In this document: positions 10,495 through 38,189 of the stretch, piece after piece | Layout: every line of letters starts with the position of its first letter | Numbering within the stretch: the stretch's first letter is position 1 | Source of the DNA: Escherichia phage vB_EcoS-phiEc3 | Sequence record: NC_073323.1 | DNA: 45,288 nucleotides | Reading direction: 5' to 3' (one strand) | Made by a program: the position numbers and the translations under genes | The notes under the pieces: model-generated | Told to the model about the DNA's origin: nothing | The model's input: only the letters and a program-made list of their open reading frames with translations | Database searches by the model: none

Positions 10495-10496
10495 AT

Positions 10497-11663: not shown

Positions 11664-11666
11664 AAC

Positions 11667-13977: not shown

Positions 13978-14084
13978 GTAGTGTGCTAGAATAATTTTGC
14001 GCCTAGTGTCGCACACGAAAAGCGGGTGGTTCCCGTCTGGCGCATTTCCTTTAACCAGTAACCTCTTAACCAAAGGATTAAAGA

Positions 14085-14501: not shown

Positions 14502-14506
14502 ACGCG

Positions 14507-18616: not shown

Positions 18617-18619
18617 CTT

Positions 18620-22055: not shown

Positions 22056-22067
22056 AGAGGACTCTAT

Positions 22068-24053: not shown

Positions 24054-24056
24054 AAC

Positions 24057-24082
24057 TAAGGCCCCAAACGGGGCCTTTTCTC
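24057..24082. terminator. Bidirectional intrinsic terminator (GGCCCC-AAAC-GGGGCC then TTTT)
   Basis: Between convergent structural and replication modules. Confidence 0.7.
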
Positions 24083-24219
24083 TACTCTTCTGATAACTTC
24101 TCCAGTACAAACGCCAGTTGCGCATTAGCGGCGTCTCTTTGCTGACGTAGCCGCAGAACCTCTTCTTCGAGTTCCTTGATACGTTTTTGCAATGCCGGAA
24201 TTGGGGCTATGATGTTCAT
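24082..24219 (-). CDS. Small coiled-coil protein, 45 aa
   Basis: ATG overlapping upstream TGA (ATGA), RBS GAGGAAA; heptad-like KELEEEVLRLRQQ; below track cutoff. Confidence 0.35.
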   Translation of the reverse strand: MNIIAPIPALQKRIKELEEEVLRLRQQRDAANAQLAFVLEKLSEE

Positions 24220-24731
24220 CTGGTAAATTTCCTCGCAAGATACGTTATTTCTTCTTCACAAAGTTCATCAAGGTCGTTAGATACAAATCCTCTGGTGAAT
24301 GTTTTGCTGAACTTTAATCCAGCTTTATCACTGTCACCGGCGCACACCCATTCATACGGCAAAAGTGACATTTGCTGCCGTAAGTCAGCTGGTATGTTCG
24401 ACCCCAATGCGCTAACTGCATTAAACCCGCAATTCATCAAAGCAACAGCTTTAAATATGCTTTCGGTAACAAATACCACCCCGCTACTTGGCAAATACTC
24501 AAGTCCCCATAAACACGGCCTTGTTGTTCGGGTAAAGTACCGCGCGTCTTTAGGGTTTTTACAGTTCTTTTCAGCATGCGGCTTGTAATGCTGGTATCCT
24601 CGTAGCCTGCCGTCAAAACCCCACAAGTAGAATGTAGCAACGCCAGGGGCTAAGACTACCTGGAGACGGTCTGCGTCAAAACCTCGTGACAGCAGATGCG
24701 CCTTAAGTAGAAACTCTTCGAAATCCATCAT
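24216..24731 (-). CDS. TOPRIM-domain protein (primase/nuclease-like)
   Basis: Conserved Glu in VFVTESIFKA and DxD in AGDSDKAG. Confidence 0.5.
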   Translation of the reverse strand: MMDFEEFLLKAHLLSRGFDADRLQVVLAPGVATFYLWGFDGRLRGYQHYKPHAEKNCKNPKDARYFTRTTRPCLWGLEYLPSSGVVFVTESIFKAVALMNCGFNAVSALGSNIPADLRQQMSLLPYEWVCAGDSDKAGLKFSKTFTRGFVSNDLDELCEEEITYLARKFTR

Positions 24732-26152
24732 TTCTTACTCCTACGTTTCATATAATTAAGTAGTTCATCCTGTACAGACCTTTTCTCGTCTGTACGCGCC
24801 GCAACAACCTCGTCCAGAGTGTCTTTAGCAACGATGTGATAAAGGAACACCGGGCGCTCGTGACCCGCCTGTTTCTGGCGGACTGGGCCTATGCGCTCAA
24901 CAACCTGCAAATAGTGCTCAAGGTTCCAGCCTTGCGAGATGAACGCCAGATGATGACCCCCGTCCTGTAAATTCAAACCATGCCCGGCTGACGCAGGATG
25001 CACGCATAAAATCTCGATTTCCCCACGGTTCCACGCTTCCATCTGCTTGTTCCCCCTAGCGCCTTTGGCGAACGCCTGTGCCTGTGGGAATCGCTTAAGG
25101 ATACGCTCCAGTTCGTGTTTAAACTGATAGGCTACCAGCAACGGCGCACCCTGCAACTCCTCAACAATCGACTCGAGCGCATCCAGTTTCGTGTCGTGCA
25201 CTTTCTCCCAGTCTTTGGTCGCTTCGCCGTCTGGCCCGGATACATATACAGCACCAGATGCAATCTGCAAGCACTTTGAGGTCTTCGCCGCAGCGTTAGC
25301 CGCTTCAACTTCCCCGCTCTCCAGTTCTGCGAATAACTTCTCCTCCATATCTATGTACGCCTGACGCGCTTTCTTCGGCAGGTCTATTTCAACCGGCACG
25401 ATAACAGGCGCTTCACAACCGAACCACTCGGCAGGGTCTATGGTCAGGCTGATGTCTTTCATCTTCTGATGAATCTCATTATCCGCACCCGGTCGTGCAT
25501 GATACTCGCGGGCCATAGCCGATTTACCTTTCTGTACCGAGTTAAACCAGCGGTCGGTGAATGCTGTGTACGAAGAGCCGAGGCGCTCGCCAGCGTCGAT
25601 AAACCAGTTCTGACCCCACAAGTCTTTGAGGCCGTTTGGTGACGGTGTGCCTGTCAGGTTGATGAAACGCTTAACCTTTCCGAACGCAACCTTGCTGAGC
25701 GCCTTTGCCCGCTTGCTACCACCCGAACGGCTGCGGAACGATTTAAGCTTCGTGCTTTCATCGGCAACGATAACCGTAAAAGGCCAGTCGTCTTTGCCGT
25801 AGTAGTCAATTAGCCACTCGATAACTTCGTAGTTAGTGCACACCACGTTAGCATCTGACTCCAGCGCTGCGATGCGGCGCTTCTCCGAACCAGTTGCATC
25901 TACGACACGCAGACAAGGGAATTGCCATTTCTCTTGTTCAGCAGGCCACGTACCGGACGCAACACGTAACGGGGCAAGGATTAACACGCGGTCCTCTTCC
26001 GTAAGCTGCCCGTTGCGGAACAGGCGGTTGAGCACCCACATAGTGGAGGAGGTTTTACCTCCCCCCATTCCGCACCAGATATTACAGCGCGGGTGTTGCA
26101 GCATGAACGAGGTCATGAGCTTCTGGTACTCGCGTCTTTGAAACTTACTCAT
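24728..26152 (-). CDS. SF2 helicase (DEAD/DEAH-like)
   Basis: Walker A GMGGGKTSS, motif II DESTK, 474 aa. Confidence 0.7.
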   Translation of the reverse strand: MSKFQRREYQKLMTSFMLQHPRCNIWCGMGGGKTSSTMWVLNRLFRNGQLTEEDRVLILAPLRVASGTWPAEQEKWQFPCLRVVDATGSEKRRIAALESDANVVCTNYEVIEWLIDYYGKDDWPFTVIVADESTKLKSFRSRSGGSKRAKALSKVAFGKVKRFINLTGTPSPNGLKDLWGQNWFIDAGERLGSSYTAFTDRWFNSVQKGKSAMAREYHARPGADNEIHQKMKDISLTIDPAEWFGCEAPVIVPVEIDLPKKARQAYIDMEEKLFAELESGEVEAANAAAKTSKCLQIASGAVYVSGPDGEATKDWEKVHDTKLDALESIVEELQGAPLLVAYQFKHELERILKRFPQAQAFAKGARGNKQMEAWNRGEIEILCVHPASAGHGLNLQDGGHHLAFISQGWNLEHYLQVVERIGPVRQKQAGHERPVFLYHIVAKDTLDEVVAARTDEKRSVQDELLNYMKRRSKK

Positions 26153-27089
26153 TTACCGCCCCCATGAATGCCTTTATAAATTCAGCGGCTACTTGCGGGA
26201 CGATGGCATTGCCGTAACCGCGCAATCGTCCCACTCTGGCGGGTATCCCATTAGCCAGCGGGAATGCGCCGGGTTCAACTGGCCGGAATTTTCCATCCCG
26301 GCAGCCGAGCCAGTCAGCATCTGACCAGAAGCCGTGATGCGAATTGGTTGCGTTATCGCCGCTGCTTGTGCCACGTCTTGAGGTCCACCCTTCCTCTGAA
26401 TCTCCGATAGTGCCCCCTCTAGTGTTCTCACGTTCTTTTCCCCGTCCGCACTGCGAGGAGTAGGCCAATTCGTCAGTTTTAGCCCCTGTTCCGTTGAGTA
26501 GTCCAGCCTGTCGAATGTTCTGTCCTTCCCGTCCTTGCGGATAACAGTCTCTCCGCTCCCTTTGTAATCGTTCGCGGTCGGTGTCGGCCAATTCGTGCGC
26601 ACCAAAGAAGAGTCGTTCTCTTTTGTGCGGAGCGCCGACGCTACAAGCTGGGAGTACGGCAAACCCGACGGCGTAGTCTTCTCCTTCCAGGTGAGTTTGT
26701 AAATCGCACATCCACGATTTTGCAATTGCTGGCGCAACCTGCTCCCCAAAGAGGACTGGAGGGTGGCACTCGCTGATGAGGTCAAGGAATACGGGCGCGA
26801 GGTGTCTCGGGTCGAACTGTCCGAGTTGCTTTCCTGCCGTGCTAAACGGTTGGCAAGGCGGGCTTCCCGTCCAGAGAGGCGTATCTTCCGGAACTCCCGC
26901 AAGTCTGAGCGCGAGAGGCCAGCCGCCGATACCAGCGAAAAAATGACACTGGGTGAATCCGTCGAGGTCTTCTGGCTTAACTTCAGTAATGCTTCTTTCA
27001 TCTACAACTCCAAAAGGTATGTGACCCTGTTTTATTAATTCACGCAGCCACGCGGCTGCGCCTTTATCCCATTCGTTGTAATAGTTCAT
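26145..27089 (-). CDS. DNA (cytosine-5)-methyltransferase with apparent frame discontinuity
   Basis: Motifs I FAGIGG, IV PCQPFS, VIII PHKRERLFF and X YGNAIVPQV in this frame; motif IX and TRD-like repeats lie in overlapping frame 26189-27001. Confidence 0.6.
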   Translation of the reverse strand: MNYYNEWDKGAAAWLRELIKQGHIPFGVVDERSITEVKPEDLDGFTQCHFFAGIGGWPLALRLAGVPEDTPLWTGSPPCQPFSTAGKQLGQFDPRHLAPVFLDLISECHPPVLFGEQVAPAIAKSWMCDLQTHLEGEDYAVGFAVLPACSVGAPHKRERLFFGAHELADTDRERLQRERRDCYPQGREGQNIRQAGLLNGTGAKTDELAYSSQCGRGKERENTRGGTIGDSEEGWTSRRGTSSGDNATNSHHGFWSDADWLGCRDGKFRPVEPGAFPLANGIPARVGRLRGYGNAIVPQVAAEFIKAFMGAVNE

Positions 27090-27277
27090 TTTGCCACCAG
27101 AACTAACTCTTTACGCCCGAACGCCGTAACGTTACCGGTTACATCTTCGATAACCAGTTTACCGTTCGACTCGACGTACACCGTATCAACGGCAACAGGC
27201 CGACGGGTCTTAACGTTGAAAATCATGTCGCCAGGTACGATGTCACGTGCTGGTTTGCGGTCATATTCGTGTTTCAT
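27086..27277 (-). CDS. Hypothetical protein, 63 aa
   Basis: ATG with AAGGAA RBS, downstream of promoter at 27311-27339. Confidence 0.5.
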   Translation of the reverse strand: MKHEYDRKPARDIVPGDMIFNVKTRRPVAVDTVYVESNGKLVIEDVTGNVTAFGRKELVLVAK

Positions 27278-27307
27278 TTCTCAATTCCTTATATTGTTGG
27301 TGTAGGA

Positions 27308-27595
27308 CTAACTATAATAGTTCGCTATTAGGGCGTCAACCTGTTTAAACGAACCAACGACAAAAACATTAGCACCACGCTTACGCATCCGCTCGTGCTC
27401 CCGTAACTGGTGTGGATCCGGCTTCGTGCTTTCGTCTTTCTTTATCTCGACGAACCAGATGACGCCGCCGGGGAGAATTACCAGCAGGTCAGGGGCGCCG
27501 GAACGTCCTTCGTAGGAAAGTTTACGAACGAGGCCACCAATGGCCTCGAATCGGTCTTTTGCGTATTTCTGTATTTTGCCCTCAGGCGTACTCAT
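27308..27595 (-). CDS. VRR-NUC domain nuclease
   Basis: Motif VIWFVEIKKDESTKPDPHQ (PD-(D/E)XK-like); ATG at 27595 after GAGGGG (track starts at GTG 27631). Confidence 0.6.
   Translation of the reverse strand: MSTPEGKIQKYAKDRFEAIGGLVRKLSYEGRSGAPDLLVILPGGVIWFVEIKKDESTKPDPHQLREHERMRKRGANVFVVGSFKQVDALIANYYS
27311..27339 (-). promoter_or_regulatory. Sigma70-like promoter TTGACG-17-TATAGT with AATAG-N4-CTATT dyad in spacer
   Basis: Same architecture as 31071-31099 and 33982-34010. Confidence 0.5.
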
Positions 27596-27797
27596 CCACA
27601 CACCCCTCACGTTTCGTATGCGCAATACCACAGCGCGGACAGATCCGGCTGTCTTCTTCGTAGAACCAGTAAATTTTCATTCCAGCACCCACAGATAAAT
27701 TGTTACTAACATACCTAATACGGCAACCATCATGCCGTATTGACCCTCGTGACAGTAGACACCGGCGGCGAATCCCGCCAGTACCGCAATAATCAGT

Positions 27798-30062
27798 TTA
27801 CTTGGCATATCGCTTCATCTCCGCACCTTCAGCTACAAGAGGGAACCCCTCCGCCCATTCCGGCAATTCGCACATCAACCGCTCAAGCTCTGCTACATTG
27901 TATTCCGGTGAATCTGGTGTCTCGCAGATAATCTCATCGTGTACGTGAAGTACAATCGGGTAGCCGTTTGCTTCTACGTTCAGCAGGGCATTAGCCAGCA
28001 AATCACGGCACAATGCCTGAGTGCAGTTTTCCACCAGTTTACCGGAGTAGGTGTACTGGAAGCCCCACTGCCTGGTTAACTGATTTTCACCCTGATACTT
28101 GATGCGCACGTTAGTAGAAACTTTTCCGTCTTCGTCTGTCTCTTTTGACACGCTCAACCCGACGCCCGGGTATGACATAACGCGACCTGACGGCAACGTC
28201 ATGCGCAACCACCAACCAGCGACTTTGTTGCCGTTGTTGTCTGTTTCTACGTTGCGAGAAAACTTAACCCCGCGAGGGCCAGCGGTGAACTCTTTACCTG
28301 GATTGCGGATAGCTGCCATAGCGGCGTCTTCAATATCCCGCCAGAACGCTACTGTTTCCGGGTGGGACTCCCGCCACATACGCTTGATAGCGTCGCAGGT
28401 ACGCCACACTTTCTTATCAAGAATATATGATGGTCGGTCATCTTTTTCACCGGGCCGCGGAGGTCGCTTTGCTTCCTGAATACGCGCCCATTCATAGCCG
28501 CGTGCAGTAGCGGCCCATATATGGTCCGGGAAAGTACCGTCCATTGTTTTAGCCATATCAACCAGGTTTAAGCCGAGGTTCTTAGCAAACTGAACGAAAG
28601 CACCGACACCACCAGCATAGCCAAGTCCCAATTCACATGCTTTACCTATCTGGCGTAGGTCACTACGGCTTTCGAGAATGTAATCAGGGTCCATGCCGAA
28701 CATCTTACCCGCGGTTACACAGTAAATATCCAATCCCGCACGGAAGGTATCGAGAGCGGTTTCTTCTCCCGCCAGCCATGCCAACCCGCGACCTTCAACG
28801 TTAGAGTAATCAGCTACGACAAACTTACGCCCGGCTTCCGGTATGATGCAGCTACGCACCGTCGATGCCGTTAGCTTGGCTACATCGAAACGGCGATGCG
28901 CGCGGCCTTTAAACAACAGGTCGATTCCGTAGGACAATGGGTGTGTTACTCTCCACCAATCCTTCTCTGACATCCAGTCATAACGTACTTTCTTCTTTTT
29001 ATTCTTCGGGTCGTCGTGATAGTACCCACGCGCGAGGTTCTGCGGCTGGAAGCCTTTACCTGCAAACCGTAACGTACGCTTAGCTCCACCATATTGTATG
29101 CAACCGCGACGGCGGTCGTCAGAAGAGCGGCCTAACAGCAGCGGGTTATATTTCGTGGACGCTGTTGACGCGGCCCCGAGGCGCATTTCGATAATCGTGC
29201 GGGCGTCGTCAGGTAAATCATCATCGGCCAGCAGGTCATTCAGCGTCGACTTCTGTGCGTTGTGTACGCGGTGTGCGGGGGCCAGTTCACGTAGAATAGG
29301 CAGAAAGTCCTTACCGGTAAGCGAGCCGCCGTATTTACGTTGAGCTTCTTCCTGTAACTGTGCCTTGTGCTTCTCTACGGCTTCAATCGCGGCTTCCGCC
29401 AGTGCGACGTCAACCTTAAATCCGCGGTCGTTGATTAACTGGTCAAGTTCCAGTACACGGTCTTCGAACTCGGAGTTACCCCAACGCGGCAGCTTATGGA
29501 AGACTTCACGCATCGCAGTGATGTCGCTCACGGCGTACCTGATGAACATCGCCCACTCGTCAGGGTGAGTTTCTGCGGTGTAGCGGCGGATTTTGTAGTT
29601 CTTCGGCGTCGGTTTAGAGAAACGCTTAATCAGAGCCTTGCCGCGTTTATCTTTCGCGTTGTCTGCAGACACGCCCAGCACTTCGCACAGCGCATCAAGA
29701 GAACCCGGCAGCGCGTGACGGAACGCCCAAATCATAGTATCAATGGTGTTACTTACCGGAATATCAAAGCCCCAGCAGTGTTTCATGATTAGGCGATCGA
29801 AAAGTCCACCGTTGTGCCACACAATCTTGATGCGGCTGTTGGGCTTAACAAGGCGGCGCAGTGCGCGGTGCAAATCCCCCGGCATGTCGCTGCCGTCGGT
29901 GCAATCCCATACCTGCACAGGCTCTTCGTCAAAAGCATAGGTACAGATAAGCACTTCGGTTGACGGGTGTTCAGCGTAAGCGTAGGAACCTACTTTCTTC
30001 AAATCGATGTCGCTGTAGGTTTCAAAGTCTAAGTAAAGCAATGTGTTCATAGTCTGTACCAC
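27798..30062 (-). CDS. DNA polymerase, family A, with 3'-5' exonuclease domain
   Basis: Exo motif YLDFETYSD, Pol A motif A DYSNVEGRGLAWL, motif B RQIGKACELGLGYAGG, motif C VHDE; start may be ATG at 30050. Confidence 0.85.
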   Translation of the reverse strand: MVQTMNTLLYLDFETYSDIDLKKVGSYAYAEHPSTEVLICTYAFDEEPVQVWDCTDGSDMPGDLHRALRRLVKPNSRIKIVWHNGGLFDRLIMKHCWGFDIPVSNTIDTMIWAFRHALPGSLDALCEVLGVSADNAKDKRGKALIKRFSKPTPKNYKIRRYTAETHPDEWAMFIRYAVSDITAMREVFHKLPRWGNSEFEDRVLELDQLINDRGFKVDVALAEAAIEAVEKHKAQLQEEAQRKYGGSLTGKDFLPILRELAPAHRVHNAQKSTLNDLLADDDLPDDARTIIEMRLGAASTASTKYNPLLLGRSSDDRRRGCIQYGGAKRTLRFAGKGFQPQNLARGYYHDDPKNKKKKVRYDWMSEKDWWRVTHPLSYGIDLLFKGRAHRRFDVAKLTASTVRSCIIPEAGRKFVVADYSNVEGRGLAWLAGEETALDTFRAGLDIYCVTAGKMFGMDPDYILESRSDLRQIGKACELGLGYAGGVGAFVQFAKNLGLNLVDMAKTMDGTFPDHIWAATARGYEWARIQEAKRPPRPGEKDDRPSYILDKKVWRTCDAIKRMWRESHPETVAFWRDIEDAAMAAIRNPGKEFTAGPRGVKFSRNVETDNNGNKVAGWWLRMTLPSGRVMSYPGVGLSVSKETDEDGKVSTNVRIKYQGENQLTRQWGFQYTYSGKLVENCTQALCRDLLANALLNVEANGYPIVLHVHDEIICETPDSPEYNVAELERLMCELPEWAEGFPLVAEGAEMKRYAK

Positions 30063-30325
30063 GTCTGATAGTCTGCTTCTGTGAGATGGTCGTCGCGATC
30101 TTGTTTCTTGTTTTTACCGCGTTCTATGATTTCTGCCCAAGTCCGGTCTGGGTCTGTGTCTTCTATTAAATGTTTATGCTCCTCGCATGCATAGTGTTTA
30201 TACCAGTCTCGTACACCGTAAGCTGGAGGGTATTTAGTCATCCAAATTGCTCTAACTTTTTTACCTTCTGCCTTACAAAATTTGCAGTATGTGATGCGTC
30301 TGTATCTCTTAAGTTCCGCTGCCAT
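30047..30325 (-). CDS. Hypothetical Cys/His-rich small protein
   Basis: CxxC...CxxH pattern; overlaps polymerase start. Confidence 0.5.
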   Translation of the reverse strand: MAAELKRYRRITYCKFCKAEGKKVRAIWMTKYPPAYGVRDWYKHYACEEHKHLIEDTDPDRTWAEIIERGKNKKQDRDDHLTEADYQTWYRL

Positions 30326-30342
30326 TATTTTCGACCCTTAGT

Positions 30343-30365
30343 AAAAAGGCCCAATGAAGGGCCTT
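30343..30365 (-). terminator. Intrinsic terminator (AGGCCC-loop-GGGCCT, T run on minus strand)
   Basis: Hairpin with AAAAA on plus strand downstream of SSB-like gene. Confidence 0.55.
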
Positions 30366-30384
30366 AGTTAAACAGATTCAGATA

Positions 30385-31017
30385 TTAACCACGGCGACGA
30401 CGTTCGCGGCGCGGTGCTTCATCTTCTTCGTCGTCTTCCAGGTCGTCGGTGCTCGCTACTACACTGGAGCCGCCGAAGCGTTTACCTTCGCCCATATACT
30501 TGATGCCGAGGATGGTAGCGCACAGGTTTTTCCAATCTTTGTGCCACCATAATTCTACAGATACGTTTGCGATACATCCGCTATATACCTGCTCGCCTTC
30601 TATTTCTTTCCCGTCGATGTTGAAATCAGGTTCGGTTTGTTTTTCACCTTTAGCCGATGTCATAATCACCGGTTGGCGGTTGTTTGTAGCGCGGAAATAC
30701 AGACCTTCTTCAAAATCCTCAATCGGATTATCTCGCATTGCCAGGTCACGGACGCAGCATTTGTCTGCGTGGTGGTCTACACCGTAGTTGGCCTTCATCC
30801 ATTTCTCGGCAGCAGCGGCCCCGATTGCATCTGTTACAACTTCCAACGCGGTGTCGTAAAGCGCATCAATTTGAGGATGGTCAGGCTGCATAAGAACAGT
30901 AACCTGATACTTACCCTTAATCAGTTTACCGGTTTTCTTGTCCTCAGAGTCGGCGGCACGTTCAAATACGTTAACCCAAGCAGTGTTTACTTTACGCAGA
31001 TTCAGTTTAATACCCAT
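30385..31017 (-). CDS. Single-stranded DNA-binding protein (T7 gp2.5-like, acidic tail)
   Basis: Acidic C-terminus DDLEDDEEDE and overall gp2.5-like layout; own promoter and terminator. Confidence 0.5.
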   Translation of the reverse strand: MGIKLNLRKVNTAWVNVFERAADSEDKKTGKLIKGKYQVTVLMQPDHPQIDALYDTALEVVTDAIGAAAAEKWMKANYGVDHHADKCCVRDLAMRDNPIEDFEEGLYFRATNNRQPVIMTSAKGEKQTEPDFNIDGKEIEGEQVYSGCIANVSVELWWHKDWKNLCATILGIKYMGEGKRFGGSSVVASTDDLEDDEEDEAPRRERRRRG

Positions 31018-31070
31018 CGTGATTTCTCGCTTTTAAGTTTACTCCGGGAGCTGCCCGGCCAGTGATTAGA

Positions 31071-31099
31071 ACTATAATAGCTAACTATTCATGTGTCAA
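31071..31099 (-). promoter_or_regulatory. Sigma70-like promoter TTGACA-17-TATAGT with AATAG-N4-CTATT dyad
   Basis: Perfect -35, 17-nt spacer. Confidence 0.55.
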
Positions 31100-31318
31100 A
31101 TAAAATTTTGCAATAGGGATTATGTTCTCGAAATTAAGCATATTGGCCGGTTCGAACTCATCCTCTACAGGGTAGTATCGCATCATGGTACCGTTCAAGA
31201 ACGTGAACGATTCCGAGTGTAGATACCCATCCCAGCGCCATACCATCAAAAAATCTTTATCAGTCGGCATTTCATTTACTTGAATCATTCTAAATCCTCC
31301 TCTGTAACTTGATTCCAC
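31085..31318 (-). CDS. Hypothetical protein, 77 aa
   Basis: ORF coupled to upstream nuclease gene. Confidence 0.45.
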   Translation of the reverse strand: MESSYRGGFRMIQVNEMPTDKDFLMVWRWDGYLHSESFTFLNGTMMRYYPVEDEFEPANMLNFENIIPIAKFYLTHE

Positions 31319-32526
31319 TCAGGACGTTTGTCATCTGCCGTTGCGACGCATGGCGCACCGGGCTTACGGGTAATGAAGTCTTTCAGTTCTTCTTCCGGTA
31401 CAATTTTAACCGCTTCGGTCGGTGTCATAAGAACTACCTTTTGCAGCATAGTACCGTACTTCTCGAATACTGCATCGGTATCTTTCCACGCACGATTACC
31501 CGGGCGTCCTTCAACCAGTTTATACCCCGGCACTTTCTTACCGGAATGTAACGCAGCAGCCATAGCTTTCTCAACCTTGTCGATGTGCTGGCGCAACAAC
31601 GGCAACTTCTCATACTCAGCTACGAGTTGCTCTGGCGTAAGCTCAAGTGCAAAGTCGTCCTCCAGTTCTTCAGCCAGTACAGAGTTAACGGTTTTTGTAC
31701 GCGCGGCGCATTGTTCAGAGAACCGGCACCACTGGCAACCATCTACCGACGGCTTAAAGTCTGACGCTTTCAGGTCCTTCTTGCCGCGGAAATAAGCATC
31801 AAGCGCTAACAGCGCGCGTTTCTGTGCGAACTTAGCGAACAGTTCCAGTCCTTCAACCGAGATGTCCCACTCTGTCGCACCCCCAGCGTAAGGCTGGAAG
31901 ATGACCAGACGAACGGTTGTTATGCTATAACGTCTCTTGAGTCGACGATAAACACCGAGAGCGTAAAGCATAAGCTGCTTGTTTTCTTTCGCTTCGACGC
32001 GATGCCGCCCGGTTTTCAGGTCGCCGATAATGAGCATGTGCTCGTCGGTGTTTGCCAGTTCCTGGACAGCAACGAGGTCAGCGGTTCCGAACGTCTCAAC
32101 GCCTTCATACCCCGGATGCAATACCTCAGTAAGATTAACACGCATTTCCAGCTTGGCGTAAGTCGCTACGTCTATAATCGCTTTGCAGTAGTCGGTGTAC
32201 TTGCGCACCTGCTCAATCATGTCCGCCGTAATCAGTACCGCGCCTTTCATCGGGCTGATTAGTGCCTTAATCTGGCCTTTGCCTTCATCCAGCACGTAAG
32301 CACCGACTTCACGCTCTAACGGCAGCGCAGTTCCGCGAATATAAGCGTTGAGATGGACCTCAGCTATGGTGTGCATTGCCGTGCCTAATACAGCGGCTTT
32401 ACCTGACGTGTTAGGGATATCTTTTTCACAGGCCAGTGATGCCGCGCAACTTAGCCACTTTTTAGCCCCTGACGGCGACAGTAAGGCATGTACATCGTTA
32501 TTGCCGCCGCGTTCTTTAAGAATCAT
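31285..32526 (-). CDS. PD-(D/E)XK exonuclease, Cas4/RecB-like with Fe-S cysteine set
   Basis: N-terminal Cys plus C-terminal CQWCRFSEQC (C-x2-C-x5-C); IGDLKTG nuclease motif. Confidence 0.65.
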   Translation of the reverse strand: MILKERGGNNDVHALLSPSGAKKWLSCAASLACEKDIPNTSGKAAVLGTAMHTIAEVHLNAYIRGTALPLEREVGAYVLDEGKGQIKALISPMKGAVLITADMIEQVRKYTDYCKAIIDVATYAKLEMRVNLTEVLHPGYEGVETFGTADLVAVQELANTDEHMLIIGDLKTGRHRVEAKENKQLMLYALGVYRRLKRRYSITTVRLVIFQPYAGGATEWDISVEGLELFAKFAQKRALLALDAYFRGKKDLKASDFKPSVDGCQWCRFSEQCAARTKTVNSVLAEELEDDFALELTPEQLVAEYEKLPLLRQHIDKVEKAMAAALHSGKKVPGYKLVEGRPGNRAWKDTDAVFEKYGTMLQKVVLMTPTEAVKIVPEEELKDFITRKPGAPCVATADDKRPEWNQVTEEDLE

Positions 32527-32885
32527 CGTAAACTCTCCAAATACAAGTTTAATGCCTGTAACTGTTCTTCTGTAGGAATGAAAGAATCATCGCGATGTAA
32601 GTCGCTTAACTGTTGCAACATTCCTGCGAACTGACGTCTTGCGTCAACAGCGTCCATGTGATGCTTTTCACTTTTATATATTAATGTTTTCGGGTAATCC
32701 TCAAGCCTGCCAGACGATTTATTCACGCGGAGCGCACGAGCTTCATGCACAATGTGAATGTACTTTTTGCCGTTTTGTAACACAGTAGCTACGCCGCTGC
32801 TCTTTCTGCGGTCGCCGACTGTGTAAACCTTGTCGCCACTACGCAGATTAAGCCACCATTTATCGGTCATACCCTGTTCTCCCAC
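32523..32885 (-). CDS. Hypothetical protein, 120 aa
   Basis: ORF in coupled array. Confidence 0.5.
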   Translation of the reverse strand: MGEQGMTDKWWLNLRSGDKVYTVGDRRKSSGVATVLQNGKKYIHIVHEARALRVNKSSGRLEDYPKTLIYKSEKHHMDAVDARRQFAGMLQQLSDLHRDDSFIPTEEQLQALNLYLESLR

Positions 32886-33139
32886 TGGTCAATTAAATGT
32901 CGTGTCTTATGGTCGCAGTGCATGGTCCACCCATACATCGACTCGAAGACATAAAAGTCAGGCTTGGCGAAAGTTGTGCGCTTAATCTGTGACACGTGAC
33001 GGCCTATATCTTTAGGCCGTGGTACTTTTCCTAAGTACGCCATCTCTTCCATCTGGTGCGCACCGGACGGAGCACGCAATAGCCATAGCGCCTCTGTGTT
33101 ATCCCGCCTGTCGACGGCTCGGTAGAGTTGGTAAATCAT
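32867..33139 (-). CDS. Hypothetical protein, 90 aa
   Basis: ORF in coupled array. Confidence 0.45.
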   Translation of the reverse strand: MIYQLYRAVDRRDNTEALWLLRAPSGAHQMEEMAYLGKVPRPKDIGRHVSQIKRTTFAKPDFYVFESMYGWTMHCDHKTRHLIDQWENRV

Positions 33140-33156
33140 AATTCCGACCCTCAGTT

Positions 33157-33176
33157 AAAGCGGCCCGAAGGCCGCG
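33157..33176 (-). terminator. Terminator-like hairpin (GCGGCC-CGAA-GGCCGC)
   Basis: GC stem; short T run on minus strand. Confidence 0.35.
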
Positions 33177-33182
33177 AGATAG

Positions 33183-33701
33183 TTATTCTTCTTCGAAATA
33201 CTTGTTCTTGATTGCTGTCAGGCGTTCCAGGTACTCAACCAGGTCTTCGTCTTTAATCGCGGCAATCTTCATCTTCTTACCTGTGAACTCTTCCAGCAGT
33301 TCATCAGAATCATCGCACGCGGCATCGCTAGGACCTTCATTAATTGCATCGTCGATGGCCTGAATCTGGTCACGCAGAGACTTGTAATCGACTTCTTCTT
33401 TCTCTTCTTCCGGTTCGGGCGCAGGTTCCTCTACTTTAGCTTTACGCGGCTTGCGTTTTGGCTTCTCTTCCTCCGCCGGTTTAGTGTCAACTACGTCTTC
33501 ACCCTCGACCGGGATTTCTTTTGTTTCTTCTTTTACAACAGTAGGCGTGATTGTTGCAGTTTCTGCGACACCACTGTCGACGTCTTTACCATATGGCGCC
33601 GTGATAGCCTTCGGCAGTTCAGTACGGCGTGCACTGTTCGCAGCAATCAGTTCATGCGCAACTACGAAACGTTCCAGTAATACTAAGAATTTCTCTAACA
33701 T
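33183..33701 (-). CDS. Hypothetical acidic protein with Lys/Pro-rich linker
   Basis: 172 aa, KPKRKPRKAK segment and acidic C-terminus. Confidence 0.5.
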   Translation of the reverse strand: MLEKFLVLLERFVVAHELIAANSARRTELPKAITAPYGKDVDSGVAETATITPTVVKEETKEIPVEGEDVVDTKPAEEEKPKRKPRKAKVEEPAPEPEEEKEEVDYKSLRDQIQAIDDAINEGPSDAACDDSDELLEEFTGKKMKIAAIKDEDLVEYLERLTAIKNKYFEEE

Positions 33702-33725
33702 TATTTATTCTCCTGTTTATTTGGG

Positions 33726-33953
33726 TTACTCGCCGTCGCCTTCTGTAAGGCTATCGTCTATTAATTCAAATTTACCGTTTGGGTGTTGAATAGCTTCTTG
33801 CCCGCAATGGTCGCAGACAACAAGTTTATCGAACCCATCAAACTCGTCCCCGACTACGCAAGAAAGTACAAATTTATGTTTTGTGCACACTTCCTGCGAT
33901 TCTCCGAAAATTACCCGGAAACATTTAGTTATAGCTCCAGTGATTATGTTCAT
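33726..33953 (-). CDS. Hypothetical Cys-rich small protein
   Basis: C...C...CDHC pattern; first gene downstream of promoter at 33982-34010. Confidence 0.5.
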   Translation of the reverse strand: MNIITGAITKCFRVIFGESQEVCTKHKFVLSCVVGDEFDGFDKLVVCDHCGQEAIQHPNGKFELIDDSLTEGDGE

Positions 33954-33981
33954 ATCTTCACCTCTCGTTTGGTATGGGCTA

Positions 33982-34010
33982 ACTATAATAGCGAACTATT
34001 CACTTGTCAA
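33982..34010 (-). promoter_or_regulatory. Sigma70-like promoter TTGACA-17-TATAGT with AATAG-N4-CTATT dyad
   Basis: Perfect -35, 17-nt spacer; divergent from HTH gene. Confidence 0.55.
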
Positions 34011-34014
34011 TGGG

Positions 34015-34043
34015 CTTTTCTAAAATAATTAATATGGTACTAT
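34015..34043 (+). promoter_or_regulatory. Candidate promoter for HTH gene (TACTAT -10, weak -35)
   Basis: -10 TACTATTCA matches conserved element; AAGGAG RBS at 34061. Confidence 0.3.
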
Positions 34044-34074
34044 TCACACATCAACTGACTAAGGAGTAATTGAC

Positions 34075-34290
34075 ATGCAACCATCCGAACTAGGCATCCG
34101 TGTAGAGCAACGCCGTAAAGAACTCGGCATCTCCCAGCGCCGTCTGGCTGTCCTGGCCGGTGTCTCCCAGGGCGCAATTAACCAGCTGGCTCTCGGTGTA
34201 ACTCAGGACGTCCGCCCGGCAACGTTGTTTAAACTGGCGGAAGTGCTGGAAGTAGACGCTAAGTGGCTGGCGTTCGGTGAAGGGGCTTGA
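34075..34290 (+). CDS. XRE-family helix-turn-helix transcriptional regulator
   Basis: HTH pattern LGISQRRLAVLAGVSQGAINQL; own RBS and terminator; opposite strand to neighbours. Confidence 0.7.
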   Translation: MQPSELGIRVEQRRKELGISQRRLAVLAGVSQGAINQLALGVTQDVRPATLFKLAEVLEVDAKWLAFGEGA

Positions 34291-34306
34291 CGCCCCTTTC
34301 TTTTTA
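34281..34306 (+). terminator. Intrinsic terminator (AGGGGC-TTGAC-GCCCCT then T run)
   Basis: Overlaps HTH stop codon; TTTCTTTTTAT tail. Confidence 0.6.
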
Positions 34307-34501
34307 TTGCACCTTTATCGGGTATCTTTTGCGAAACTTACCTAACCCGCAGTACACGCTGTAAGCCTCTGTGTAACTGAACACAACATGATACCCGCGC
34401 CCATAAGGAACTACGTTAAGAACTTCTACTACTTCGCCTCTGTGGTTGGTGTATTTATTACCTTTCAGTTCGTCGCTTACTTCTTTAAATTTACCGCTCA
34501 T
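34304..34501 (-). CDS. Hypothetical protein, 65 aa
   Basis: ORF coupled downstream of primase-helicase. Confidence 0.45.
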   Translation of the reverse strand: MSGKFKEVSDELKGNKYTNHRGEVVEVLNVVPYGRGYHVVFSYTEAYSVYCGLGKFRKRYPIKVQ

Positions 34502-36777
34502 TCCAAATCCTCCTCTGTCACTGTCAACATTTCATTCGGTTCGTATATTGTCTTTGGAATCTTGTTATCAGTTATTCTGGTGTTCAGCCTGTAACGACCT
34601 GGGATTATCTGATTGTTTTCGTCAGTACCCGGAACAAGATACCCAGCCTCAACCATTTTCTTAATCTTCCCGCGTTCTATGGCTTCTTTGGAGTTAAACG
34701 CCTTTGCGTTGGGGTCAGACTGCGCGAGCTTATTCGCTGCGGATACCGTGATGCCCTCGTTGCCGTTGTAGGTCCCCTCCGCCAGTTCAAACGCCGCGAG
34801 TATCGTGGCCTCGGAACTGTTGACGGCGTTCTCTATGGTTTTACGTACATTTTGTTTACCTTCGTTAGTTAACCCTTCTTCCCTCTCTTTCTCCTCGTCG
34901 GTCTTGAATGGCTCGAAGCCCCACGGCATCAATACAAGCGCCTTGTGCGGCTCAGGCAGGTCGAGGTTTACTATTGTGCCGTATTCCTCTGTGCTACCGA
35001 GGAACTCAACCGCGCGGTACTCTTTCGGCGGCGGTGCTTCACGGAACTGTACAGACTCCAGTACCATGCCAACCGTCTTCTGTTGAGGACCGTGCTTAAA
35101 TTTAGAGTGGTATACGTTTATCTGACGGTCGGTAGCGCGTTCGATTGTCAGTTCCACGTCGACACCCGCATACAATGCTCCACTGCCGCGGGCTTTCTTT
35201 CCGCCCTTCGGAGTATGGTGAACGACACCGACAGCGGCTTTAGTTGCATCGCGCACTTCTTTCAGGATGGCGATAACTTTACCCATACCGATTGCCGTTG
35301 ATGAACTGTTCTCGTCGAACTTATCAATCGTCAGGGCCAGCGTCTGGTTAAGGGTGTCGAAGGCAACCATGCCAATAGGTTCATCCCCTGCGGTTTCGCG
35401 CATCCTGCGGATTAGAGCTGGAATTTTTTTATCACCATGCGTAGCGAGTATTTCGCCCATATCGATGACATGTACATAATCTTTACCTTCCTCGCCATAT
35501 TTAGCCGCGAGTGCATCAATACGTGTTCGTGTAGCTGCACCACCCTCGCCGTCAATATAGAAATGGTGGCAACGTTGGGTGTCAGCCCCCGCAAACCGGT
35601 ACCCGGCGGCGCTCAGGTACATCATCCCCAGCGTATAGAATGATTTGTACGTGCCGGATTCCCCGACAATATCCCAGATACAATCCGACGGCATGTACCC
35701 CTCAACGACGAAATCAGCCTTTACCGGTTCTGGTAACTCGTCCTCTTCTTCAAGGTCTTCCAGGTCGTCGAGGCTGCATGAGACAGATTCACGCGCCCCC
35801 CAACCGATGGCCTCTGCGACTTCACTGAACGGCAGCCCGGTCGCATCGCACGCGTACTTCCACACCTCTTTCGGTGACAGGCCTTCTGTCGCCGTAATGT
35901 CTGTGTCGTGAATCATGGTTACGTTTGGCGCTTCATACCCCTCGCGCGGGAAGCACAGCAGGAAGTCGTCCGGGCGCGGTGTCGGGTCGCTGTAGTTTTC
36001 GGCATGTTCCGGTGTGGCTGGCATCTTAAGGCCGCGCGGCGTCATGACGCCGCCGTACTCAAACGCCAGTGCTTCAAACGCGTCTGTAAACGCGGTGCGC
36101 AGTTCTTCCGGTATCTGGTAATCCGATGCGCTGCTAACGTCAACGGCTGGGATGCCTTCCAGTAACTCGTTCGGGTCGATCAGGTCGTTGCGGCGCGACC
36201 AGATAACGGTAGCGCCGACCGGCGGCAGGTACATCGGCTGCGACAGAGTGAACCCGCTGCGGTCAGCGCCCATGCCTTCGAAGAAGTGCTCCAGCAAGCC
36301 ATGACGAACACGGATGATGTCGCCGCCTTCAACCGGGCGGCTCAGCGGCATGACGACGCGAAAGCGCGGTGACTCATCGGTATGTGATGCCGTGGTGTAG
36401 AGACACATCGCCCGGCGGCTGCGATTAACCAGGCGCACCGCTTCCTGGTACTCTTCCGGTGTTGCACTGTCGAAGTCCAGATACGCCAGCGACGATTTGC
36501 TCACAGACGCGTCACAGCGATAGAAGAAGCCTTTACGCGCTTGCTTAAAGTCACCGGTTTCCGGGTCTTTTACAGTGCTGTGCGCAGAGTCGCACGCGGC
36601 AGTAATATAGCCTGGCGCTGTCTTCGGGTTGATCCCGTCACGAACAGCATCGAGCGGCTGGATTAACTCTTTCAGGTCATCCAGTGTTGCCGTGTGTGTG
36701 GTTCTGACGTTTATATCCTTTTTCTCTGCCCGCGCGTTGCGACGTGACCACGAGTAGGATAAAATTACATCGGACAT
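34498..36777 (-). CDS. Primase-helicase (prim-pol-like N-terminus, RecA-like NTPase C-terminal half)
   Basis: YLDFDS and TASHT motifs N-terminally, P-loop-like GESGTYKS, 759 aa. Confidence 0.6.
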   Translation of the reverse strand: MSDVILSYSWSRRNARAEKKDINVRTTHTATLDDLKELIQPLDAVRDGINPKTAPGYITAACDSAHSTVKDPETGDFKQARKGFFYRCDASVSKSSLAYLDFDSATPEEYQEAVRLVNRSRRAMCLYTTASHTDESPRFRVVMPLSRPVEGGDIIRVRHGLLEHFFEGMGADRSGFTLSQPMYLPPVGATVIWSRRNDLIDPNELLEGIPAVDVSSASDYQIPEELRTAFTDAFEALAFEYGGVMTPRGLKMPATPEHAENYSDPTPRPDDFLLCFPREGYEAPNVTMIHDTDITATEGLSPKEVWKYACDATGLPFSEVAEAIGWGARESVSCSLDDLEDLEEEDELPEPVKADFVVEGYMPSDCIWDIVGESGTYKSFYTLGMMYLSAAGYRFAGADTQRCHHFYIDGEGGAATRTRIDALAAKYGEEGKDYVHVIDMGEILATHGDKKIPALIRRMRETAGDEPIGMVAFDTLNQTLALTIDKFDENSSSTAIGMGKVIAILKEVRDATKAAVGVVHHTPKGGKKARGSGALYAGVDVELTIERATDRQINVYHSKFKHGPQQKTVGMVLESVQFREAPPPKEYRAVEFLGSTEEYGTIVNLDLPEPHKALVLMPWGFEPFKTDEEKEREEGLTNEGKQNVRKTIENAVNSSEATILAAFELAEGTYNGNEGITVSAANKLAQSDPNAKAFNSKEAIERGKIKKMVEAGYLVPGTDENNQIIPGRYRLNTRITDNKIPKTIYEPNEMLTVTEEDLE

Positions 36778-36835
36778 GTTGTATTTCCTTCAGCAAATAA
36801 TTTGGCCTCGGCGTTCACCGCGTCGGGGCTTTCTT

Positions 36836-37126
36836 TTATCTTTTAGCCAGACATTCCATCAAATGTGCGTACTTACGATAATAATCTGCGACAATCTCAT
36901 CACCGAAATACTGATAAACGTAGGATAGGTGGTCGGAGACATCGATGGAAGCCGACATTGTGCTGAGTCTTCTTAGACTAATCGACTGCAATTCTTCTGT
37001 AACGCAAAACGGCAAATATGAGTCCAGTTTACAGGAAACGTTAAAACACAACGCATACTCACCTTGCACTAAATAGACCATATAAGCACTGTCATTTTCT
37101 TTATCGTGGAAAATTACACCTTTCAT
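36836..37126 (-). CDS. Hypothetical protein, 96 aa
   Basis: ORF in leftward early operon. Confidence 0.45.
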   Translation of the reverse strand: MKGVIFHDKENDSAYMVYLVQGEYALCFNVSCKLDSYLPFCVTEELQSISLRRLSTMSASIDVSDHLSYVYQYFGDEIVADYYRKYAHLMECLAKR

Positions 37127-37293
37127 TTCACGTTCTCCTTAATCCACGCTTCAACTTTATTACGGTCAAATGTTCCTGGTAAACGGCGCCCCATTACTTT
37201 AACGCTGCAATCAGGAAACTTTCCACTCTTAATCCAGTTATTGATTGTCTGGCGGGTGACGCCGATTAATTCTGCAACTTCATTGATAGTCAT
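37123..37293 (-). CDS. AlpA/excisionase-like HTH DNA-binding protein
   Basis: Motif MTINEVAELIGVTRQTINNWIKSGKFP; ATG at 37293 after AGGAG (track extends to 37383 via TTG). Confidence 0.6.
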   Translation of the reverse strand: MTINEVAELIGVTRQTINNWIKSGKFPDCSVKVMGRRLPGTFDRNKVEAWIKENVK

Positions 37294-37322
37294 CTCGCGC
37301 TCTCCTGTGTAATATGTATCGA

Positions 37323-37351
37323 AGTATAAGGCGGTAACTTTGTAAAAGCAA
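37323..37351 (-). promoter_or_regulatory. Sigma70-like promoter TTGCTT-17-TATACT (leftward early)
   Basis: 17-nt spacer; 8-bp inverted repeat TAACTTTG/CAAAGTTA at 37335-37342 and 37365-37372. Confidence 0.45.
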
Positions 37352-37398
37352 CCAAAACACCACGCAAAGTTACTAAAATACAAAAGATGCTACTGGTA

Positions 37399-37427
37399 TT
37401 GACTTTTACTTGAAAATATGCTAAGCT
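37399..37427 (+). promoter_or_regulatory. Sigma70-like promoter TTGACT-17-TGnTAAGCT (rightward early)
   Basis: Conserved with 4675-4703. Confidence 0.5.
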
Positions 37428-37430
37428 TCA

Positions 37431-37541
37431 CTGAGCTTGTGAGATATCGCAAGCGACCGCGGAGCGGCAGGGAACGCAACGCGTGCCATTAGGCACTTGA
37501 GTGTAGTTCCGCTGACGCTTTCGGAAGGGTCAAAGTCTATT
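37431..37541 (+). ncRNA. Candidate structured leader RNA, copy 2
   Basis: Paralogous to 4708-4817 with compensatory substitutions in two helices. Confidence 0.5.
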
Positions 37542-37609
37542 GTTAATCCCGCCTAAATATCCAAGTCACTGATAATTAAAAGTTTCTATAGTTGCCGTGA
37601 GCAAGGTAG

Positions 37610-37666
37610 AGAGTACTTCACTCCGCTGGGGTGGGCTAAAGCCCACCCGCTGCGTTGCGTACTCTT
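37610..37666 (+). terminator. Extended stem-loop, terminator/attenuator-like
   Basis: Inner GGGTGGGC-TAAA-GCCCACCC closed by AGAGTAC/GTACTCT, then TTTAAAG. Confidence 0.35.
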
Positions 37667-37707
37667 TAAAGAAACAAAAGAATCACAACGGCAACGTAAC
37701 TATTCTC

Positions 37708-37736
37708 TTGCACACCCCAACATAATAGGATACTAT
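37708..37736 (+). promoter_or_regulatory. Sigma70-like promoter TTGCAC-17-TACTAT (conserved element copy)
   Basis: Same core as 4580-4608 and 13949-13977; AGGAG RBS follows. Confidence 0.5.
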
Positions 37737-37770
37737 TCACTTATCGGAACGAGACAGAGGAGTGATGGTT

Positions 37771-37956
37771 ATGTTTAAGAAGGGTCAGTTGGTTAAAACA
37801 AAACGCGGCGGACAGTACGTAATAGTTACCCAGAATGAGGATGAATATAGTACCGCTGTAGACGTATGGGGTCTTGTACGAAAGAAACATGGTTACGCTT
37901 TCAGAGATAATTTAACACTCATCGGCAACAATTTTAAATTCAAAGGGGTGAAGTGA
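37771..37956 (+). CDS. Hypothetical early protein, 61 aa
   Basis: ATG 9 nt after AGGAG; track ORF begins at GTG 37762. Confidence 0.5.
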   Translation: MFKKGQLVKTKRGGQYVIVTQNEDEYSTAVDVWGLVRKKHGYAFRDNLTLIGNNFKFKGVK

Positions 37957-38189
37957 TGCAAATCATAATTACAGATAACACCGTTATATACGAAGAAGAT
38001 GGTGATACTCCCGAGAAAATAGGCGTAAATGTGGGTGATGTTTTCAATGTACTGGATTCCTGTGAGGATGGCTGGTGGATTAAGACAGGAAGATACACAA
38101 TCCTGGTAACTAAGGCAGAAGCGAAGGTATACACAACGGCATCTAATCATGATGCTCGTGCCGACGACTCTGAGGGAGGTTGCCGTTAA
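37953..38189 (+). CDS. Hypothetical early protein, 78 aa
   Basis: ATGA-coupled start. Confidence 0.5.
   Translation: MMQIIITDNTVIYEEDGDTPEKIGVNVGDVFNVLDSCEDGWWIKTGRYTILVTKAEAKVYTTASNHDARADDSEGGCR

Follow-up and report, generated by a model that had tools for sequence, protein, structure and literature searches.

The put RNAs of phage HK022 act without protein factors, through the zinc-binding domain of the β' subunit of RNA polymerase (RNAP). To our knowledge, only a few RNA elements that make RNAP resistant to terminators are known (put, EAR and the RNA part of conAn), put itself being essentially confined to HK022-like prophages. The put RNAs are two-stem structures, of which a genome has two; they begin at position +3 of the pL transcript and suppress both Rho-dependent and intrinsic terminators over at least 10 kb (PMC9378689). 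A leader RNA that invites comparison with them is described here from the 45,288-bp sequence of Escherichia phage vB_EcoS-phiEc3 (NC_073323.1), the whole of which is referred to below as the window. One copy of this leader heads the late operon (copy 1) and another lies between positions 37294 and 37770, in the intergenic region that divides the leftward replication operon from the rightward unit (copy 2). The phage is a Kagunavirus of the subfamily Guernseyvirinae, which is virulent according to the taxonomy of its relatives, and the queried stretch is 99.9% identical to Escherichia phage vB_Eco_K-01. Comparison of related phages shows the leader to represent a new, strongly constrained family of predicted structured RNAs, tied to an extended −10 promoter of its own and heading the late operon of the Guernseyvirinae. 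The element is not described in the literature searched.

A number of properties are common to this leader and the put RNAs. Both are encoded by the phage in cis as two adjacent stem-loops that are 1–2 nt apart, and both begin within ~3 nt of the 5' end of the transcript (putL in the case of put). Furthermore, both occur in duplicate within a genome, each copy heading an operon and lying upstream of terminators and long operons, and the two copies differ in sequence while the fold is kept (PMC9378689). The leader stems are very unequal, comprising a 20-nt P1 and a 68-nt long hairpin, unlike those of put, and the phages that carry the leader are virulent whereas those with put are lambdoid and temperate. 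A search of HK022 with the leader covariance model R1, with filters off, gave no match at putL or putR (best match elsewhere, E = 0.24), a negative that excludes close homology only, R1 being a narrow model. At the gathering threshold of Rfam 15 the leader has no match, the sole match in the window being the int-alpA motif at 13996, and a permissive Rfam search of 37200–37900 returned only hits with E ~1 or worse; Rfam contains no put family (HK022 put itself goes undetected), so these negatives are uninformative on put. No transfer RNA or transfer-messenger RNA was found in the window.

The leader also resembles other systems in part. In common with the λ nut site, it is an RNA element located just after divergent early promoters and its hairpin carries a GNRA-like loop in some copies; unlike nut, it lacks a boxA, its apical loop is unconserved and no arginine-rich N-like protein was identified. 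No boxA (GCUCUUUAACA-like) site with up to two mismatches is present in 37294–37770 or 4675–4930, and across the window such sites number 9 where 11.6 are expected, which is below chance. Similarly, the tail motif of the leader, (C/A)UAUUG, does not retain the CUCUU core of boxA (Jersey type: GUUAUAUUG), and PHROGs searches of the rightward genes turned up no protein resembling Q or N. The initial annotation of this region had proposed a nut-like element after the rightward promoter, and this proposal fails on the missing boxA, on an apical loop that is variable, unlike boxB, and on the lack of a recognisable N- or Q-like protein. The λ PR'-tR'/Q and PalpB-tB/AlpA modules share with the leader locus a constitutive-looking sigma-70 promoter, a short leader, a terminator-like hairpin and a long late or lysis operon (PMC9371919), as well as a −10-like repeat near +1. 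The leader locus differs from these modules in that no Q or AlpA homologue was found, the −10-like repeat is mostly without the critical A, and the part that is conserved and covaries is the leader RNA. The same genome also has the int-alpA RNA motif (RF02996), likewise leading a long late operon and coming immediately behind an extended −10-type promoter, but different in both fold and sequence. This motif directly follows the promoter-like site TTGGGG-16-TGcTAGAAT (from 13966) and heads the 10-kb tail operon (14085–24053); at least two long rightward operons, at 4928 and 14085, thus open with a promoter and a structured leader.

The stretch from ~37352 to ~37542 is shown by comparison with relatives to be a portable cassette, composed of a predicted extended −10 promoter, a ~96-nt two-hairpin RNA and a ~15-nt conserved tail (Table 1), and the predicted transcript from this promoter starts directly with the leader RNA. 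The promoter displays a −35-like hexamer, a 17-bp spacer, TG at −15/−14, T−12, A−11 and T−7, and its TG and TAnnnT elements are invariant in more than 45 leader copies, including those of the Jersey type (TTGACT-17-TGtTACGCT). Every leader copy stands at a fixed distance after TTGACT-17-TGnTA(A/C)GCT, and pattern scans of IMG/VR together with BLAST searches of GenBank phages place TTGACTTTT..TGnTAAGCT at constant spacing upstream of all 24–25 distinct leaders recovered, which fall into at least eight sequence types. The rightward TTGACT-17-TGnTAAGCT promoter of the initial annotation is therefore upheld, the identical promoter type standing ahead of every leader copy, and conservation among relatives is not confined to promoter hexamers but reaches far beyond them across promoter and leader. 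The initial annotation had also marked 37431–37541 as a second leader copy, which is verified by a paralogue at ~4710–4822; exactly two copies are found in the window with R1. The point that had been overlooked is that copy 1 is the ancestral, subfamily-wide leader. The predicted fold energy of copy 2 is −45.9 kcal/mol.

Table 1. Coordinates of the features discussed, as positions in the window; the gene map was drawn from the annotated relatives SETP13, K1G and Golestan.
Feature	Position	Strand	Basis
A-rich block upstream of rightward promoter, left part of cassette	37352-37398	+	near-identical in copy-2 carriers, absent from K1G and SETP13
Rightward sigma-70 extended −10 promoter, TTGACT (37399-37404), 17-nt spacer, TGcTAAGCT (37419-37427)	37399-37427	+	sequence reading
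Leader RNA copy 2, structured core	37433-37528	+	covariance model R1, 69.1 bits, E = 2e-14
P1, 5'-terminal hairpin, starts at ~+3 of predicted transcript	37435-37454	+	folding
GA linker, then long irregular hairpin P2-P5 with conserved internal loop and variable apical stem	37457-37524	+	folding
Copy-2 leader 3' tail GUCAAAGUCUAUUG, continuing from GGAAGG	37529-37542	+	conservation across types
Two-tier hairpin, outer stem GAGAGUAC/GUACUCUU, inner stem GGGUGGGC/GCCCACCC, no U-tract	37607-37668	+	folding
Class I phage promoter TTGCAC-17-TACTAT (37708-37736), with palindrome AATAGGATACTATT at 37724-37737	37708-37743	+	palindrome count, conservation
First rightward gene, 61 aa, ATG at 37771	37771-37956	+	phrog_12538, E = 2.9e-28
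Copy-1 promoter TTGACT-17-TGaTAAGCT (4675-4703) with abutting perfect palindrome AACTATTCGAATAGTT (4661-4676)	4661-4703	+	sequence reading
Leader RNA copy 1, core 4710-4803 plus tail, ahead of late operon	4710-4822	+	covariance model R1, 116.9 bits
Two-tier hairpin, inner stem GCCCUGC/GCAGGGC plus UUUACUUAUC, just before late gene at 4928	4871-4913	+	terminator scan, folding
Leftward promoter TTGCTT-17-TATACT	37323-37351	-	sequence reading; conserved in relatives
Inverted repeat, arms GTAACTTTG (37334-37342) and CAAAGTTAC (37365-37373), 22-nt spacer	37334-37373	.	sequence reading
HTH_17 (excisionase/AlpA-type winged-helix) protein, 56 aa, first gene of leftward replication operon	37123-37293	-	Pfam PF12728
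int-alpA RNA motif, Rfam RF02996, 36.6 bits (gathering 35.8)	13996-14060	+	Rfam
Terminase, portal and head-morphogenesis genes	1-4319	+	annotated relatives
Late operon: Rz-like spanin first, then scaffold, major head, neck, tail-tube	4928-11663	+	annotated relatives
Tail operon	14085-24053	+	annotated relatives
Replication block	24082-37293	-	annotated relatives
Rightward unit: small genes, lysis genes, small terminase	37771 onward	+	annotated relatives

Two further features adjoin the leader promoters. The palindrome AACTATTCGAATAGTT, a perfect 16-bp repeat centred at ~−41.5, borders the −35 of copy 1 and carries the AATAG-N4-CTATT half-site in everted orientation; type-A phages have kept it, the Jersey type retains a degenerate form and copy 2 lacks it. 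In addition, the −10 hexamer is followed 3–5 nt downstream (~−1..+5; 37422–37438 and 4698–4715 in the window) by a near-repeat of itself, TAAGCT..TGAGCT in types A, B, C and E and TACGCT..TACGCT in the Jersey type (L184, ~430–450), the latter being the sole version that keeps the essential A at position 2. The location of this near-repeat is that of the sigma-dependent pause elements at Q- and AlpA-type promoters.

When folded singly, all of the 24 distinct leaders adopt one common architecture. P2, the base of the long hairpin, is made up of CCG/CGG, a bulged C, tandem G-U pairs, a covarying N-N' pair and GC. Above it are P3/P4, an internal loop (5'-GRAGC / 5'-AGYGUA) and the variable apical hairpin P5, whose loop varies freely (GUAA, AUUA, GUUA, GUCA, UGUAG and others). 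Conservation of the single-stranded tail, GGAAGGGCC..(C/A)UAUUG, extends to every type, the Jersey type and the deletion variant found in phage SLMP1 (see below) among them. Sequence is kept in P2, the internal loop and the tail; P1, P3 and P5 are free to covary. Compensatory pairs are already seen by RNAalifold on a plain, unfitted MAFFT alignment. In a first model-based alignment, 97.1% of cells were paired, compared with 32–39% in slid controls, and eight pairs had changed on both sides. With the Jersey type added, 95.9% of cells were paired (~35% in slid controls), 17 of the 29 pairs were compensatory and the covariation score was 0.421 vs 0.138, with none of 500 shuffles reaching 0.421; both of these alignments were fitted to the structure and their counts are consequently biased towards it. 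The single-sequence folds and the unfitted alignment agree with the model-based counts. Owing to the conserved G-U pairs, the fold is predicted for the rightward (plus-strand) transcript alone.

Several other candidate features of the leader were considered and rejected. Pairing of the P1 loop (AGUAUG) with the tail (CAUACU) into a pseudoknot is possible in some type-A phages only; K1G and SETP13 have it disrupted and type B lacks it, so it is not a core feature. Inspection also led to the rejection of a K-turn, as no fitting GA-tandem geometry is present, of an ops element, as GAGUGUAG fits 5 of 12 ops positions and is altered in type E, and of a leader peptide, as the UUG after the tail is unconserved (UCG in K1G and UUA in L AB-2017).

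The region is matched by ~444 phage records, mainly Salmonella Jerseyviruses and E. coli Kagunaviruses. A type-A leader is found as copy 1, ahead of the spanin/head/neck/tail-tube operon, in ~178 (178–185) GenBank phage records, and a strongly diverged Jersey type occupies the same site in ~268 records, including those of phage Jersey and SETP3. Jointly, these two late-operon forms account for ~446 GenBank records of Guernseyvirinae, and by this count appear to represent essentially the entire subfamily. Copy 2 is limited to a subset of the Kagunaviruses and is an accessory cassette. The corresponding slot of K1G (~36640–36900) is filled by an unrelated ~190-nt cassette with a GC hairpin (GCCCCGC-CAUAAA-GCGGGGC) and the same GTCTATT junction at its end. 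Outside these phages, no leader copy was detected in 5,426 complete E. coli genomes, nor in one genome per bacterial species save for a single contig, the rest being chance matches, and a scan of viral contigs anchored on P2 and the tail yielded zero additional loci. The exception, JAEWLW010000073.1 (L178), is a 6.2-kb contig from a metagenome-assembled genome (MAG) labelled 'Bacillota bacterium', whose type-E leader is genuine and has the surroundings of a Kagunavirus early region; it is most likely a mis-binned phage contig.

Between the window and Salmonella phage SETP13, the type-A leader core is 98.9% identical and the whole promoter-to-ATG 5'-untranslated region (5'-UTR) module of copy 1 95.5%; the flanking genes are 69–87% identical and the third codon positions of the spanin gene 59.7%. 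Comparison of this kind shows very strong purifying selection on the leader; of the non-coding stretches examined in the ~450 sequenced Guernseyvirinae, none is more conserved. Where both copies are present in one genome or contig (the window, contigs IMGVR_UViG_3300045988_039442 and _014597, and L124), they are of differing sequence types in four cases out of four (A+B, A+E, C+B and A+C). Because the copies differ in type in these cases, and because type C has been found at either site, the data suggest that the two sites exchange leaders, which subsequently diverge. The divergence between copies could perhaps reflect avoidance of recombination between direct repeats 32 kb apart.

At both sites the leader is followed by a stable hairpin. 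That behind copy 1 (−20.8 kcal/mol, z = −3.8) always lies at a fixed distance after the leader, with the first late gene 15–25 nt further on. No further promoter is predicted in this stretch, so all transcription of the late head, neck and tail-tube genes must cross it. Part of the hairpin (4884–4903 plus TTTACTTATC) scores as a terminator in the terminator scan, and, when type A is compared with the Jersey type, covariation is seen in the inner and the outer stem alike (outer stem GAUAAG/CUUAUC vs UAUACG/CGUAUA). Further terminator-like sites are located within the downstream operons, at 7275, 11668, 2756 and 38717. Near-identical GGCCCC-GAAA-GGGGCC terminators are present at operon ends (2744–2775, 11658–11689, 24048–24079 and 4320–4347), one of them within the portal/head-morphogenesis unit, and a terminator-like hairpin (7275–7296) directly follows the major head gene. 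In folds of the full 5'-UTR in four contexts, the leader and the hairpin are independent, with no competing pairing, as far as thermodynamic prediction can tell.

The hairpin behind copy 2 (−34.5 kcal/mol, z = −3.5) has three T in the 10 nt after its inner GC stem and is not listed by the terminator scan. The stem that the initial annotation had placed at 37610–37666 is thus present and stable, but its reading as a terminator does not hold, as it lacks a U-tract and also occurs in K1G, which has no copy 2. In each of the two lineages that carry copy 2, a GC hairpin comes after it, the two hairpins being unrelated in sequence: the window type, GGGUGGGC.., is without a U-tract, and the Golestan type consists of (CTCA)n, GGUGCC-UUCG-GGCACC and a T-rich tail. 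The class I promoter described below comes next. The (CTCA)n microsatellite of Golestan-type phages, situated between copy 2 and the UUCG-loop hairpin, has 3–6 units and differs in length by isolate (L124, 37760–37790; also L125, L126, L138, L165 and L178); being C-rich and G-poor, it resembles a Rho-utilisation site.

Of the roles considered for the leader, the most likely is that of a cis-acting antitermination or processivity RNA, put-like in its working and outside the put and nut families, a reading that is advanced tentatively and with slightly less than even confidence. According to this model, the leader would act in cis on the transcription complex making it, and the complex thus modified would pass both the hairpin or terminator that follows and the terminator-like sites inside the long operons, through processive antitermination or anti-pausing of the kind brought about by HK022 put, either unaided or with a host or phage factor. 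The likely contact surface would be formed by the sequence-invariant parts, which are the base of P2, where the tandem G-U pairs and the bulged C lie, the GRAGC/AGYGUA internal loop and the GGAAGGGCC..UAUUG tail; P1, P3 and P5 would serve as structural spacers. In the lineage of the window, a diverged copy with its promoter would have been placed upstream of the ancestral rightward promoter, adding a second, terminator-resistant source of transcripts for the small genes, the lysis genes and the terminase. Cis action on elongation is favoured because late head, neck and tail-tube transcription must pass a conserved hairpin right after the leader, because one module serves operons that differ in timing and downstream sequence, because the leader moves with its promoter and because the invariance of parts of it suggests an interaction with some conserved host machine. 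The occurrence of the leader at both 'early' and 'late' sites, with type C at either, also argues for a function independent of timing and of the genes served. In its strongest form, this model would make the leader a second, structurally unrelated class of self-sufficient RNA that reprograms host RNAP, subfamily-wide and duplicated as a mobile 'terminator-proof promoter' cassette, which we consider somewhat unlikely.

A number of observations weigh against antitermination, in addition to the bias of the covariation counts towards structure. No homology of sequence or structure between the leader and put was detected with the narrow model R1, and the leader is longer (~96 nt plus tail, ~110 nt, as opposed to ~70 nt). 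The single Kagunavirus transcriptome that was found is at gene level, without mapping of start sites (PMC12645636). The 'terminator' of copy 1 is the inner part of a larger covarying two-tier hairpin and equally fits a processing or stability hairpin; behind copy 2 in the window there is no U-tract, and possibly nothing to antiterminate. In K1G and SETP13, the copy-2 slot holds unrelated sequence between shared flanks, both phages managing without copy 2. Finally, Salmonella phage SLMP1 (NC_073208; L183, ~446–500) has a natural 44-nt deletion of P3–P5 that leaves P1, the P2 base and the tail intact; SLMP1 is deposited as a complete genome, and the upper half of its leader is apparently dispensable. 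The SLMP1 deletion, the absent U-tract and the lack of copy 2 in K1G and SETP13 call for caution over the copy in this region.

The RNase III hairpins of T7 early mRNA are two-tier structures with an internal loop that lie between a strong early promoter and the first gene, as do the hairpins of the leader region between promoter and leader on one side and first gene on the other. The T7 sites are conserved in shape and not in extended sequence. A first alternative is that the leader is a module for mRNA stability or processing, in which P1 would shield the message from 5'-end-dependent decay and the long and two-tier hairpins would be RNase III-type sites whose cleavage sets the 5' end and half-life of the downstream message. 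Such a role would be in keeping with a P1 that starts at ~+3 of the predicted transcript in every type, with downstream hairpins that are two-tier, of ~16–20 bp, with an internal loop and a covarying outer stem, and with the copy-2 hairpin being devoid of a U-tract. It is nevertheless a rather unlikely explanation, as stability hairpins and RNase III sites need shape rather than sequence, which leaves the near-invariance of P2, the internal loop and the tail across genera unexplained, along with the constant travelling of the leader with its own promoter.

A second alternative is a protein-loaded late promoter of the λ Q or Pseudomonas aeruginosa AlpA kind, in which a phage protein would bind promoter DNA, engage RNAP that has paused at a −10-like element near +1 and carry it across the terminator. 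The leader would then mainly separate the promoter from the terminator, or would be where an N-like RNA-binding factor attaches. The order of promoter, leader, terminator and late operon conforms to this scheme, the −10 near-repeat at ~−1..+5 coincides in position with the pause element of PalpB (PMC9371919), a 16-bp palindrome borders the copy-1 −35 and the phage encodes many small early proteins without known function. However, TGAGCT is without the essential A at position 2, the palindrome is missing at copy 2 and degraded in the Jersey type, neither a Q nor an N family was detected, and a DNA-loaded factor leaves unexplained the covariation of the RNA strand in 17 pairs; such a system is distinctly improbable here.

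Still more doubtful is that the leader is a riboswitch-like attenuator that responds to a metabolite or ion by setting termination at the following hairpin, or a stand-alone small RNA of ~200–240 nt acting in trans on host targets. An aptamer-like character is suggested by the invariant internal loop and junction nucleotides, a hairpin always follows the leader and the promoter is strong and apparently constitutive. Against these points, no conserved alternative pairing between leader and hairpin exists, the spacer and hairpin being wholly different between contexts, and Rfam offers no match to a riboswitch or small RNA family. Moreover, transcription from copy 1 must run into the late genes, so a purely terminated small RNA is insufficient, and SLMP1 survives without the internal loop.

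The remaining features of the region concern its leftward side and the rightward promoter next to the first gene. The region is a two-way control region of a virulent Kagunavirus, made of separable modules. All features listed in the initial annotation are present in the sequence on direct reading, the region does divide a leftward operon, with the HTH_17 gene first, from a rightward unit, and the claim that it is the largest intergenic region agrees with annotated Golestan, in which the equivalent gap (37501–37973) is the largest. The leftward TTGCTT-17-TATACT promoter is likewise there, its −10 and −35 hexamers holding their positions in five relatives (Golestan, RP180, L AB-2017, K1G and SETP13), and it is shown to serve the HTH_17 gene and the replication operon. 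A generic sigma-70 scan with a threshold of 9 of 12 on the hexamers alone lists none of the three promoters of the region, each of which scores below 9/12, so that support for them comes from conservation and not from consensus score.

The HTH_17 protein, named for its helix-turn-helix (HTH) domain, is a member of its Pfam family (E = 3.2e-10, 40.6 bits; cutoff 27) and consists of this domain alone; no significant match to AlpA or Q chains was found in the PDB, the best match being a weak one to the phage excisionase 4j2n. Its identity with the AlpA antiterminator of P. aeruginosa is ruled out, there being no homology and a length of only 56 aa (PMC9371919, PMC7969949), and the name AlpA common to the two is a coincidence of nomenclature. 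An inverted repeat that the initial annotation gave as 8 bp long, with one arm inside the leftward promoter spacer, does exist with that arm so placed, although its length is really 9 bp. Golestan, RP180 and L AB-2017 (76–80% identical relatives) have unrelated sequence in place of its left arm, and its right arm sits in the A-rich block of the rightward cassette. Shuffling the region yields a perfect 9-bp inverted repeat with a spacer of up to 40 nt in 5.5% of cases, and the genome contains 10 such repeats, making this one only marginally unusual. Given the unconserved left arm and the shuffle rate, the repeat is probably not a conserved operator, and its proposed operator role is not supported. 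The lambdoid pL/pR-type reading of the initial annotation, taken as an immunity region in which this repeat would be the operator of the HTH proteins and the leader a nut-like site, takes its appeal from divergent promoters, an HTH gene on one side and a repeat arm in the leftward promoter spacer, but is very improbable and largely refuted by the comparative data: the phage is virulent, there is no CI-type repressor in the window (as had been recognised) and no set of repeated operators over both promoters, the only inverted repeat being unconserved, boxA and an N-like protein were not found, the apical loop varies and the cassette is absent from K1G and SETP13, whose slots are unrelated.

The further TTGCAC-17-TACTAT promoter annotated at 37708–37736 is confirmed, and its membership of a seven-member family of palindrome-bearing promoters had been overlooked. 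AATAG-N4-CTATT occurs seven times in the window, compared with 0.04 expected, at 4579, 13948, 27316, 31076, 33987, 37724 and 39009, all sites being promoter-associated and in one of two registers. In class I, TTGCAC-N11-palindrome, TACTAT lies within the palindrome (4579(−), 13948(−), 37724(+) and 39009(+)); in class II, TTGACA-N4-palindrome-ATAGT, a near-consensus sigma-70 promoter has the palindrome in its spacer (27316(−), 31076(−) and 33987(−)). As the class I site at 37708–37743 is kept in K1G, SETP13, all copy-2 carriers and the other relatives examined, it is the ancestral promoter of the rightward unit. The seven palindromes are probably a genome-wide operator network. A gene for an XRE-type HTH protein (34075–34290) is divergent from the class II site at 33981–34010, and we infer its product to be a candidate binder of the palindrome. 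The seven-site network and the palindrome at the copy-1 promoter together provide testable hypotheses on temporal control.

The Guernseyvirinae are widely isolated for biocontrol and therapy directed at Salmonella and E. coli, and the leader sits where expression of their late genes must be licensed. It also provides a subfamily-specific marker sequence. Should it prove to be an antiterminator, it would constitute a new compact model for the control of RNAP by RNA, and phage engineering and synthetic biology would gain a portable 'promoter plus read-through' part. With a role in mRNA stability or processing instead, the leader would still mark the likely control point of late expression in the subfamily.

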